This document shows positions 11,834 to 14,504 of a stretch of 64,000 nt of DNA, piece after piece. A model generated the notes under the pieces. It had not been told where the DNA came from and did not search any database. It saw nothing but the letters and a program-made list of their open reading frames with translations. Origin of the DNA: an uncultured Verrucomicrobiae bacterium (GTDB lineage: Bacteria > Verrucomicrobiota > Verrucomicrobiia > Chthoniobacterales > JAFAMB01); NCBI GenBank assembly GCA_963813025.1, contig CAWEXO010000011.1, positions 928,001-992,000 on the forward strand. The letters run 5' to 3'. The first letter of the stretch is position 1, and each line of letters starts with the position of its first letter. A program made the translations under genes and the position numbers.

Positions 11834-12904
11834 ATGATTGAGGAAGCGAAGCTCATTGACTCAAGCAACGCACTCGTGGACTGGTGCGCCGCCATCGCCC
11901 GAGCGAATGTGATCGCCCTCGATACGGAGGGTGACAGTCTCCATTGCTATTTTGAAAAGCTCTGTCTGATCCAGATCGGCTTGCCTGACCGGAACATCCT
12001 CGTAGACCCCCTCGCGGCAATCGATCTTTCTCCGCTTAACGCCACATTGGAGGGAAAGCCGCTGGTCTTCCACGGCTGCGATTATGATCTTCGGATGCTT
12101 CGGCGAGGAATTGGGTTTTCTCCGAACAACGTCTTTGATACTTACCACGCCGCACGGCTCGCCGGAATCAAAGAAGTAGGGTACGCGTCGCTCGTGAAAT
12201 TTTTCTTTGGAATTGATCTCCCGAAATCCTCGCAAAAAGCCAATTGGGCCAGGCGCCCGCTCACTCTTCCCATGATGAAATATGCGCTCAATGACACCCG
12301 TTATCTCCTGGACTTGAGCGATCGCTTGGCCGCTTTGCTCCAGGCTAAGCAGCGCTGGTCGTGGTTGGAGGAAACATGCGGCCGGGCGGTCGCAGCGGCA
12401 GCCACGGATCGAGATCGTGATCTGGACAAGGTCTGGAAAGTCGCCGGAAGCGCTGCTCTGCGGGGTCAAGCCTCCGCGGTGCTGCGCGAGCTCTGGTTTT
12501 GGCGGGACGCCGAAGCGCGCGAAGTCGACCGGCCCGCTTTTCAGATCCTGCGCAACGAGGATCTGATCGCCATCGCGCGGCGGGCAGCAGAAACTGATTT
12601 TGTGGAACTGCCGGGGCATTTACCTTCCGGCCGGCGGAGAAGATTGCGGGAATCGATCGAGAGAGCGCTGCGTCTTCCCGAATCGGCTTGGCCCCAGGCG
12701 CAATCAGCTCCACGAGTGCGTTCCACCGCTGAACAGGATCAGCTTTTTGAAGTTCTAAAGAGCAAGCGCGATAAAGTAGCCGCCGAGCTGGAGCTGGATC
12801 CGGGCGTCGTCGCGCCGCGACAAGCGTTGGAACGTGTCGCGCGAGAGCCGGAATCCAGTTCGGAGGTTTTGATGGCTTGGCAATGCGAGTTGCTTGGGTT
12901 GTAG
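11834..12904 (+). CDS. rnd: Ribonuclease D (3'-5' exonuclease + HRDC)
   Basis: ALDTEGDSLHCY...LCLIQI, NWARRPL...YALND, C-terminal HRDC (WRDAEAREVDRPAF). Confidence 0.92.
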   Translation: MIEEAKLIDSSNALVDWCAAIARANVIALDTEGDSLHCYFEKLCLIQIGLPDRNILVDPLAAIDLSPLNATLEGKPLVFHGCDYDLRMLRRGIGFSPNNVFDTYHAARLAGIKEVGYASLVKFFFGIDLPKSSQKANWARRPLTLPMMKYALNDTRYLLDLSDRLAALLQAKQRWSWLEETCGRAVAAAATDRDRDLDKVWKVAGSAALRGQASAVLRELWFWRDAEAREVDRPAFQILRNEDLIAIARRAAETDFVELPGHLPSGRRRRLRESIERALRLPESAWPQAQSAPRVRSTAEQDQLFEVLKSKRDKVAAELELDPGVVAPRQALERVAREPESSSEVLMAWQCELLGL

Positions 12905-12910
12905 GGGAAA

Positions 12911-13170
12911 GGGAGTTCAAGGAAGTTCAAGGAAGTTCAGGGAAGTACCCTTCGGACTCTACTCAGATTCACTGTGTGTCCTCGAAAGCGGGCGACCCAC
13001 CTTCGCCTTCGCTGCGCTCACCCACGGCGCGGCAGGCCTTGTCGCCGCTTTGAGACTGCGGGTCTACCCGCCGTCGGCGAGTCCGCGGGAATGAAGGAGG
13101 GAGCGCGACCCCAACCAAGCGGGTCTTTTTCGCCAGGCAACTTGGCCTGAATTTCCCTGAACTTCCCCTC
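12911..13170. repeat. Composite intergenic element: inverted (GAACTTCC) decamer arms enclosing a REP-like unit
   Basis: gggagttcaaggaagttcaaggaagttcaggga (12911) versus aatttccctgaacttcccc (13150); inner 13000-13051 is a reverse-complement homologue of 24545-24597. Confidence 0.7.
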
Positions 13171-13188: not shown

Positions 13189-13218
13189 TTGGCAAGAAGA
13201 ACCAGGTGAGCTAAGAAT
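13189..13218 (+). promoter_or_regulatory. Putative sigma70 promoter for the leader peptide/DAHP synthase transcript
   Basis: TTGGCA-N17-TAAGAAT just upstream of the leader ATG at 13231. Confidence 0.45.
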
Positions 13219-13230
13219 CTTTCAACAATC

Positions 13231-13317
13231 ATGAAACCGAACCGGATTTCGCTGACCAGCTATGCTGTCAAAAGCGAGTTCTTCGGCTACCGGTTTTTCT
13301 TTTGGCGCGTTATCTAG
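13231..13317 (+). CDS. Putative aromatic-amino-acid attenuator leader peptide [28 protein letters not shown]
   Basis: 28 codons with 5 Phe, 2 Tyr, 1 Trp; 7 of 9 consecutive codons are aromatic (FFGYRFFFW); ends 173 nt upstream of DAHP synthase. Confidence 0.8.
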
Positions 13318-13490
13318 GCGCCGACCTCTCGCTCCCGTCCCCTGCGAGTGTTCTTCAGTCGACGCTTGTTCTAATCATGCAGACGCTTACCCCTCCATCT
13401 CCTGTCTCGAGTTCGAGGAAATTGTCATCGAAACAGCCGGATATTAATAAAAGTTGCGATAGATCAACCCTCACCCCGAACTTCCTTGCC

Positions 13491-14504
13491 ATGATCATCA
13501 TTACTCGTCCTGATGCGACTGAGGAGCAGATCGAACACGTCGTGTCCCGAATCCGTGCCTGGGGCCTGAAAGCCGAGGTCAGCCGCGGCAAGATGCGCGT
13601 CGTGATCGGCGTGATCGGGCCCGAAGATAAAATCCGCGAAAAGCCGCTCGGCGCTTTCCCCGGAGTCGAATCAGTGACGCCGGTTCTGAAGCCGTACAAA
13701 CTGGTCGCGTACGAATTTCGCGGGACGCCCTCAGTAATCCGCGTCGGGCAAGTGCCGATCGGGACAAAGCAGATCGTCGTGATGGCCGGACCTTGCTCGG
13801 TCGAGAGCGAGGAACAGATCACCGAGATTGCCCACAGCGTTAAGGCGTCCGGGGCAAAGATTCTCCGCGGCGGCGCCTTCAAACCGCGCACTTCGCCGTA
13901 CAGTTTTCAAGGATTGGGGAAGGTCGGTCTGCAACTCCTGGCCGAAGCACGCAAACAAACCGGGATGCCGATCATTACCGAGGTCATGGATACCAAAGAT
14001 CTCGATCTCGTCGTCGAGTATGCTGATTGCCTCCAAATCGGCGCGCGTAACATGCAGAATTTTTCTCTGTTGCGCGAAGTTGGCCGAACCCGATTGCCGG
14101 TGATGTTAAAACGCGGCATGTCCGCCACGATCAAGGACCTGCTTATGAGTGCGGAATACATTTTGAGCGAAGGCAACTTCAATGTACTCCTTTGCGAGCG
14201 GGGCATTCGGACATTTGAGACAATGACGCGAAACACACTCGATCTGAACGCGGTTCCAGTACTGAAGTCGGAAACCCATTTGCCCGTGGTGGTCGATCCA
14301 ACACACGGGGTGGGCGTCCGCGATTACATACCCGCCATGGCTTTAGCGGCGGTTGCCGCGGGCGCCGATTCGATTATGCTGGAGGTCCATAACGCTCCCG
14401 AACAGGCGAAAAGCGACGGAGAACAATCCCTTTTACCGGAATCCTTCAGCCGATTGGTTGAACGGATCCGGGACGTCGCTTTGGCGGTTGGGCGCAGCCT
14501 TTGA
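13491..14504 (+). CDS. aroF: 3-deoxy-7-phosphoheptulonate (DAHP) synthase, type I-beta with N-terminal regulatory domain
   Basis: [58 protein letters not shown]; start at ATG 13491 (MIIITRPDA). Confidence 0.95.

Follow-up and report, generated by a model that had tools for sequence, protein, structure and literature searches.

Upstream of a DAHP synthase gene in this uncultured Verrucomicrobiae bacterium we found a short reading frame rich in phenylalanine, tyrosine and tryptophan codons which, judging from its sequence and conservation, very probably senses the supply of these three amino acids by ribosome stalling. In its features the locus resembles a leader-peptide attenuator, although it lacks the intrinsic terminator that marks the classical trpL/pheL type. 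Between leader and enzyme lies a second open frame, hereafter the bridge, and translation across it, rather than its product, appears to be under selection. We lean, narrowly, towards a stalling-dependent attenuation whose output is linked to Rho through the bridge, with DAHP synthase switched on by a shortage of charged Phe-, Tyr- or Trp-tRNA. Positions below refer to the window, that is, the whole stretch of 64,000 nucleotides that was analyzed. The features of the locus are as follows:

11834..12904, + strand: RNase D-like gene (rnd), the usual upstream neighbor with or without a leader (profile match below cut-off)
13189..13218, + strand: promoter-like site P1, TTGGCA-N17-TAAGAAT (TTGGCA 13189-94; TAAGAAT 13212-18), from a promoter scan; putative function
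13231..13317, + strand: leader ORF of 28 codons, without Shine-Dalgarno sequence (ORF list and family comparison)
13279..13305, + strand: aromatic codon run FFGYRFFFW, with the invariant Trp codon at 13303-13305 (family codon counts)
13302..13324, + strand: hairpin H1, Trp-Arg codons paired with bases after the stop; mutually exclusive with the base of H2 (folding)
13315..13368, + strand: hairpin H2, starting at the stop codon and ending 8 nt short of the second ATG, without U-tract (folding and covariation)
13377..13490, + strand: second ATG (ATG2) and 38-codon bridge frame, in frame with DAHP synthase (conservation in 27 leader loci)
13380..13409, + strand: C-rich, G-poor tract directly after ATG2, candidate Rho loading site (base composition)
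13454..13482, + strand: P2, candidate weak internal promoter, TTGCGA ... CGAACT (motif conservation)
13491..14504, + strand: DAHP synthase type I-beta with ferredoxin-like domain, conventional start (NF006421 above cut-off, PF18152)

The initial annotation had described the leader ORF, the promoter-like site, two short stems and a gap of 173 nt to ATG 13491, and all of these positions are unchanged on re-reading. Such a density of aromatic codons is rare: just 4 of the 56,854 short ORFs in the host genome reach at least seven F/Y/W per ten residues. A DAHP synthase ortholog was found in 40 of 43 family genomes, at 41 loci, one of which has only 63 nt of upstream sequence and is unassessable. 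A conserved F/Y/W-rich upstream frame, which the initial annotation had suggested as a check, is present at 27 of the 40 assessable loci, in seven genera; the other 13 are leaderless. These 27 loci are kin and should be counted as about seven independent lineages. Their leaders measure 26-32 aa and each contains at least four Phe, one Tyr and one Trp, with Trp 3-7 codons upstream of the stop. The last Trp codon, at codon 23-27, is TGG in all 27. At the five positions preceding it, 119 of 135 codons are aromatic, against 58.5 (maximum 71) in same-base shuffles and 48 and 34 in the other two frames. This frame-specific excess rules out a U-rich pause element acting in place of the codons. The proposal that one leader responds to all three aromatic amino acids is borne out, as far as sequences can tell, by the presence of F, Y and W in 27/27 leaders, by apparent selection at the codon level and by terminator-bearing parallels in two phyla.

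Within the family, leaders occur on either side of the deepest split of the enzyme tree and the starred branches require at least seven changes (the unassessable locus being carried as leaderless), a distribution that fits a single origin with repeated loss. Outside the family, none of 41 sampled orthologs from other families of the order has five or more aromatic residues in ten, and the 11 loci of a second paralog of DAHP synthase, with about 50% identity, are all without an aromatic leader. Named records closest to the enzyme itself, at 73-79% identity, belong to Chthoniobacteraceae, Chthoniobacter and Chthoniobacterales, which would place the host genome in Chthoniobacterales. Searches of curated families gave no match for the leader peptide in NCBIfam or Pfam, a single chance-level Rfam match in the window region (E 1.1) and no Rfam match in 12 loci. 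At one locus (L010, genome G011), unrelated sequence truncates the leader just past the Trp codon position; the hairpin region is kept and the bridge is frameshifted.

P1 is the sole site returned by a promoter scan of the upstream region (0.2 expected) and its spacing is matched in 26/27 leader loci. It would place the transcription start just 5-7 nt or so upstream of the leader ATG. We considered a sigma-54 reading of TTGGCA and dropped it: the distance to TTGC is 11 nt, whereas the two elements of sigma-54 promoters are about 5 nt apart. Shine-Dalgarno-like words precede 10% of 345 starts in the host genome, compared to 6% in the control; the 16S anti-Shine-Dalgarno sequence is intact despite this sparse use. 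Between rnd and the promoter, the window carries an insert of about 265 nt (12905-13170) absent from a same-genus genome. It is flanked by 21-nt inverted arms (12921-12941 / 13146-13166) of a GGAAGTTCA-type repeat with dozens of genome copies. We describe this insert as REP- or MITE-like.

The initial annotation saw no classic U-tract terminator after the leader, and we concur. The window scan finds none, and a strict scan finds none in the 27 family leaders versus 26 of 29 control leaders from Terriglobia and Gemmatimonadota; a looser scan yields three marginal matches in the 27. An intrinsic terminator after the leader is rejected on these counts. In the host genome at large, 3 of 330 convergent gene ends have a U-tract terminator-like site behind them, a number equal to that in shuffles. 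No C>G skew is seen at these convergent gene ends either, which lends no support to a genome-wide reliance on Rho. The nearness of rho (TIGR00767 above cut-off), located upstream of the leader, which had been offered as a hint of Rho-dependent attenuation, carries no weight, because the rnd-aroF adjacency, scored for rnd and not for rho, holds equally in leaderless genomes. A link between Rho and the output of the leader is nevertheless plausible from the sequence that follows it.

The spacer of 173 nt was correctly measured, but it is not wholly untranslated: an ATG at 13377, in frame with the enzyme, is conserved 59 nt past the leader stop. An equivalent ATG2 lies 48-71 nt downstream of the stop in 27/27 leader loci. 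In 25 of these the bridge is fused in frame to DAHP synthase, adding 38-46 poorly conserved residues; the remaining two bridges run the full way as well, one ending 2 nt before the DAHP ATG and the other overlapping it. Bridges are open in 27/27 loci, compared to 0.24 per locus in shuffled bridges before any frame requirement, and the other two frames contain stops in 23/27 and 19/27. That the frame is always open while its residues are poorly conserved suggests selection on translation across the bridge and not on the peptide added. The bridge is broken at L010, L023 and L029, three loci without a functional leader in which clear remnants of it persist. One locus speaks against our model: a divergent second DAHP synthase copy (L115, genome G024) lacks the aromatic leader and yet has a coupled bridge ORF of 44 codons, as well as a P1-like promoter. 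An ortholog from the same genus is annotated as 375 aa in the protein collection, and ATG 13491 is the only DAHP synthase start in leaderless relatives. We propose that annotation be changed accordingly, the start of DAHP synthase on the regulated transcript likely being 13377. As to ATG 13491, a P2-type TTGCG motif occurs in 18/27 leader loci and is retained in three loci that lost the leader; in several relatives its second part reads TAACAC or TAACAG. This motif suggests a basal transcript serving the conventional start.

The first 30 nt after ATG2 have a family mean of 39% C and 9% G, and in 18/27 loci this tract ranks among the upper 5% when 345 gene starts are compared. At third codon positions of the bridge, G amounts to 15%, versus 30% for the body of the gene. 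Most of the C>G tract is located downstream of the second ATG, and bridge RNA folds no better than shuffles (z +1.0). A weakly structured C>G tract 3' of the upstream ORF, as in the mgtL/corL type of regulation, is found here. G-poor 5' coding ends may instead serve initiation without a Shine-Dalgarno sequence. Given sensing by stalling, we regard a Rho-linked output as fairly probable.

The mechanism that we propose runs as follows. Under starvation, a ribosome would wait on the F/Y/W run and cover the Trp-Arg segment, letting H2 form; a ribosome would initiate at ATG 13377 and cross the C-rich bridge, Rho would be excluded and the gene expressed. Under plenty, the ribosome would arrive at the stop, open the 5' arm of H2 and depart. 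The partner of the Trp-Arg segment would now be this arm in genus g1 and part of g4, or the bases shortly upstream of ATG2 in g8 and partly in g7, and Rho would terminate transcription on the naked C-rich RNA. P2 could supply basal enzyme from ATG 13491.

How well do the RNA structures fit this scheme? Both stems of the initial annotation, GGCGC 13304-08/GCGCC 13318-22 and CTCGC 13328-32/GCGAG 13344-48 followed by TGTTCTTC, are present; the latter is not a whole stem, however, but the inner part of H2. H2 is more stable than shuffles across the family (mean z -3.2; 22 of 27 loci below -2; locus L177 at +1.6) and not strongly so in the window itself (z -1.1 to -1.9). Its core of seven pairs is paired in 83.8% of cases, compared to 18-47% for slid controls, with double changes at four of the seven pairs; seven rows in which MAFFT misplaces the 3' arms of genera g8 and g11 count as breaks in this figure, and relatedness can inflate the covariation measure. 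RNAalifold finds no consensus on the 27-row alignment, in which g8 is misaligned. For H1, 87.7% of cells are paired and covariation is weak, with one pair showing double changes; H1 dominates solely in g1 and part of g4. What the Trp-Arg segment binds in ribosome-free folds depends on the genus: in g1 and part of g4 it is the H2 5' arm, in g8 and partly in g7 the bases preceding the second ATG.

The weak point of the model is the switch itself. Folding with and without a stalled ribosome, as had been suggested for this leader, gives a divided answer: H2 is predicted to fold once a ribosome covers the Trp codon, but gating of ATG2 is null family-wide. Sequestration of ATG2 by the freed 3' arm of H2 does not differ from shuffles in the 27 family leaders (z 0.02), nor does sequestration by the Trp-Arg segment when all genera are taken together (z -0.15). 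The region of ATG2 is more open in the stalled than in the at-stop state in 21/27 leaders when positions -10..+6 are considered, and in 9/27 with positions -20..+12.

These folds bear directly on the best surviving alternative, in which attenuation is translational only: the stalled ribosome would free ATG 13377 for synthesis of an N-terminally extended enzyme, or hand ribosomes to ATG 13491, hardly altering the mRNA level. Genus g8 provides its best case. There the Trp-Trp-Gly codons pair directly with bases upstream of ATG2 in 6/6 loci, and the cost of opening ATG2 drops from 3.4 to 1.2 kcal/mol upon stalling. Moreover, the bridge is coupled to the enzyme in every leader locus, and Shine-Dalgarno use is rare, so that structure near the start should matter. 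Yet the shuffle tests are null across the family, the Trp segment of g1 pairs in H1 rather than with the start region, and the needs of initiation alone would have to account for the strong C>G bias downstream of ATG2. We consider this alternative unlikely, although it deserves to be kept in mind.

Clearly less probable is termination or pausing at a hairpin without a U-tract, of a non-canonical intrinsic kind aided by NusA/NusG. When H1 forms, the ribosome-free fold of the window contains an alternative stem (13344-13352/13361-13369) that could act in this way, and the leuA leaders of the family, judged by eye, end in a GC-rich hairpin that bears a U-tract in some other families. However, the alternative stem is rich in G-U pairs and inconsistent among relatives, and gene ends of the host genome show hardly any excess of strong hairpins (18 of 344, compared to 11 in shuffles and 8 within coding sequence).

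A role for the peptide itself, either as a small protein or through TnaC-like arrest in response to a free aromatic amino acid, or a role of the ORF in merely feeding ribosomes downstream by reinitiation, appears slightly more doubtful still. The fixed position of Trp and the narrow length range of the leaders would suit such a role; against it, the N-terminal two thirds of the leader diverge freely, F and Y interchange within the aromatic run, and a biosynthetic enzyme would not be expected to be turned ON by its product. A published proposal of reinitiation at leader genes concerns a gap of 10-14 nt in the text available from that source (PMC4833913), shorter than the 48-71 nt separating stop and ATG2 here. 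Finally, a non-regulatory reading, with the ORF a by-product of a U-rich leader and ATG 13377 simply the true gene start, could draw on the leader's absence from 13/40 family loci and from the 41 sampled orthologs of other families, but is very improbable in view of the frame-specific aromatic codons, the invariant TGG, the conserved start and promoter spacing and the parallel leaders in other phyla.

Stalling-dependent attenuation with a Rho-linked output, which we retain as the preferred reading, can be set beside other leaders of the same genome and family. By eye, no leader is seen before pheA, trpB, hisG or ilvB of the host genome, and the assembly, 80% complete, yielded no trpE. In the family, none of the 29 assessable trpE loci (of 30) has a Trp leader, trpE lying directly behind another gene; by eye and from its C-terminal motif, this gene resembles hisI. 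All 22 family loci in which leuA was matched carry a conserved Leu-rich leader upstream of it, in nearly every case without a U-tract. The host copy lies outside the window (G000:C11 at about 1001900-1001990, minus strand; L133/L144). The leuA leader has a near-invariant LLGSGAP motif, appears to be leaderless and occurs in looser versions in some other families (L145-L173); the GC hairpin that follows it carries a U-tract in some of these and mostly does not in the host family. It has no match in Rfam. The words TGGCGC ... GGTCAG, shared by the aro and leuA leaders, were dropped as evidence, as they occur 44 times in the genome at that spacing.

Aromatic upstream ORFs also occur at several of the 80 best named DAHP synthase loci, and two groups provide enough cases for comparison. 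Among Terriglobia (61 genomes around one record, 37 matched, best 30 loci analyzed), 22 of the 30 loci have at least four F/Y/W in ten residues and 20 of those 22 have a terminator. Among Gemmatimonadaceae (61 genomes around one record, 9 matched), the corresponding figures are seven of nine loci and six with a terminator. Some 25 of these 29 leaders contain F, Y and W by eye; L233 is probably a spurious one. None of the five tested matches Rfam. Classical-looking loci with a Phe/Tyr/Trp leader and a terminator comprise L216-L254 (relatives of L091 and L106) as well as L047, L062, L065, L069 and L111. In addition, a Bacillota record (L109) has a 12-codon aromatic upstream ORF at 259-220 nt from the DAHP synthase start, behind which come a hairpin and U-tract resembling a terminator. 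Textbook-like attenuators on the same enzyme in other phyla support the reading in which stalling turns the gene ON, and the leaders of Terriglobia and Gemmatimonadota show that the host family is not alone in having triple sensing at this enzyme.

If our model is correct, leader-peptide attenuation would extend to a lineage of Verrucomicrobiota for which we found no such report, and the sensing of Phe, Tyr and Trp would be joined at the pathway entry, in a family whose assessable trpE loci lack a Trp leader. More tentatively, we may hypothesize that a lineage with little Shine-Dalgarno initiation and few U-tract terminators rebuilt attenuation as a two-ORF relay. One leader would integrate three aromatic tRNAs and a second frame, fused or coupled, would have as its sole job to carry a ribosome over the Rho-loading tract, making this the terminator-less form of a widespread and apparently uncatalogued class of Phe/Tyr/Trp leaders. 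The classical versions in Terriglobia and Gemmatimonadota, together with the leuA leader of the family, provide natural controls.

Our literature search returned no report of such a leader in Verrucomicrobiota, Acidobacteriota or Gemmatimonadota; predictions may exist in subscription papers and supplements, which lay outside its coverage. Predicted aroF or aroA attenuators have been catalogued, the available text giving no aromatic leader sequence (PMC2659441, PMC1173090). The closest described system is the aroR-aroF attenuator of C. glutamicum, where a Phe-Tyr-Phe leader precedes aroF and responds to Phe but not to Tyr (PMC4046766, PMC11802643, as available in part). The likeness consists in an aromatic leader peptide before DAHP synthase and in a rise of expression upon stalling in aroR. 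Compared to aroR as described, the present leaders have a longer F/Y run with an invariant Trp, lack a U-tract terminator and are followed by a translated bridge. The Acholeplasma uORFC-13-1 motif is likewise a predicted upstream ORF before aroF encoding DAHP synthase; according to the accessible portion of its description (PMC8632094), it differs in having at least one Phe codon only, an adjacent intrinsic terminator and a host in a different phylum.

The classical leaders trpL and pheL of E. coli and ilvB1 of M. tuberculosis share with ours cognate codons near the stop; their alternative hairpins, one arm of which is covered by a ribosome at the stop, have a predicted counterpart here (PMC13236596, in its available part). 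Unlike trpL, pheL and ilvB, the family leaders have no terminator hairpin with a U-tract (0/27) and no Shine-Dalgarno sequence, and are followed by a second open frame. Amino-acid-rich leaders without intrinsic terminator are also found in the actinobacterial cys leaders and LEU element, for which Rho or translational control has been proposed; these concern other amino acids in another phylum, and no conserved bridge frame is described in the text available (PMC1262725). The same text reports that leader codon mutations had no effect in S. coelicolor ilvB (PMC1262725). The translated bridge offers a testable answer to how attenuation can operate without an intrinsic terminator or Shine-Dalgarno sequence, a question still open for the actinobacterial cys and leuA leaders.

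As for output, Rho termination gated by an upstream ORF is established for mgtA, corA and tnaC (PMC12360218, seen in part). The predicted logic of our locus is that of mgtL, corL, tnaC and the M. tuberculosis Mbox/uORF as outlined in the available text of two reports (PMC12360218, PMC12810186): full translation of the upstream ORF reshapes the RNA so that a C>G tract is exposed, which translation of the downstream frame shields. The signals differ, being Mg2+ or free Trp in those systems, and the role of Rho in ours is a predicted one. With the leaders of Terriglobia and Gemmatimonadota, those of the host family share the enzyme class and the joint presence of F, Y and W; the former often end in Y-W or Y-W-R and carry a GC hairpin with a U-tract, which the latter do not, the likeness being one of features. 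Aromatic leaders before DAHP synthase are already known from aroR and uORFC-13-1; the variant without terminator and with a bridge appears to be new.
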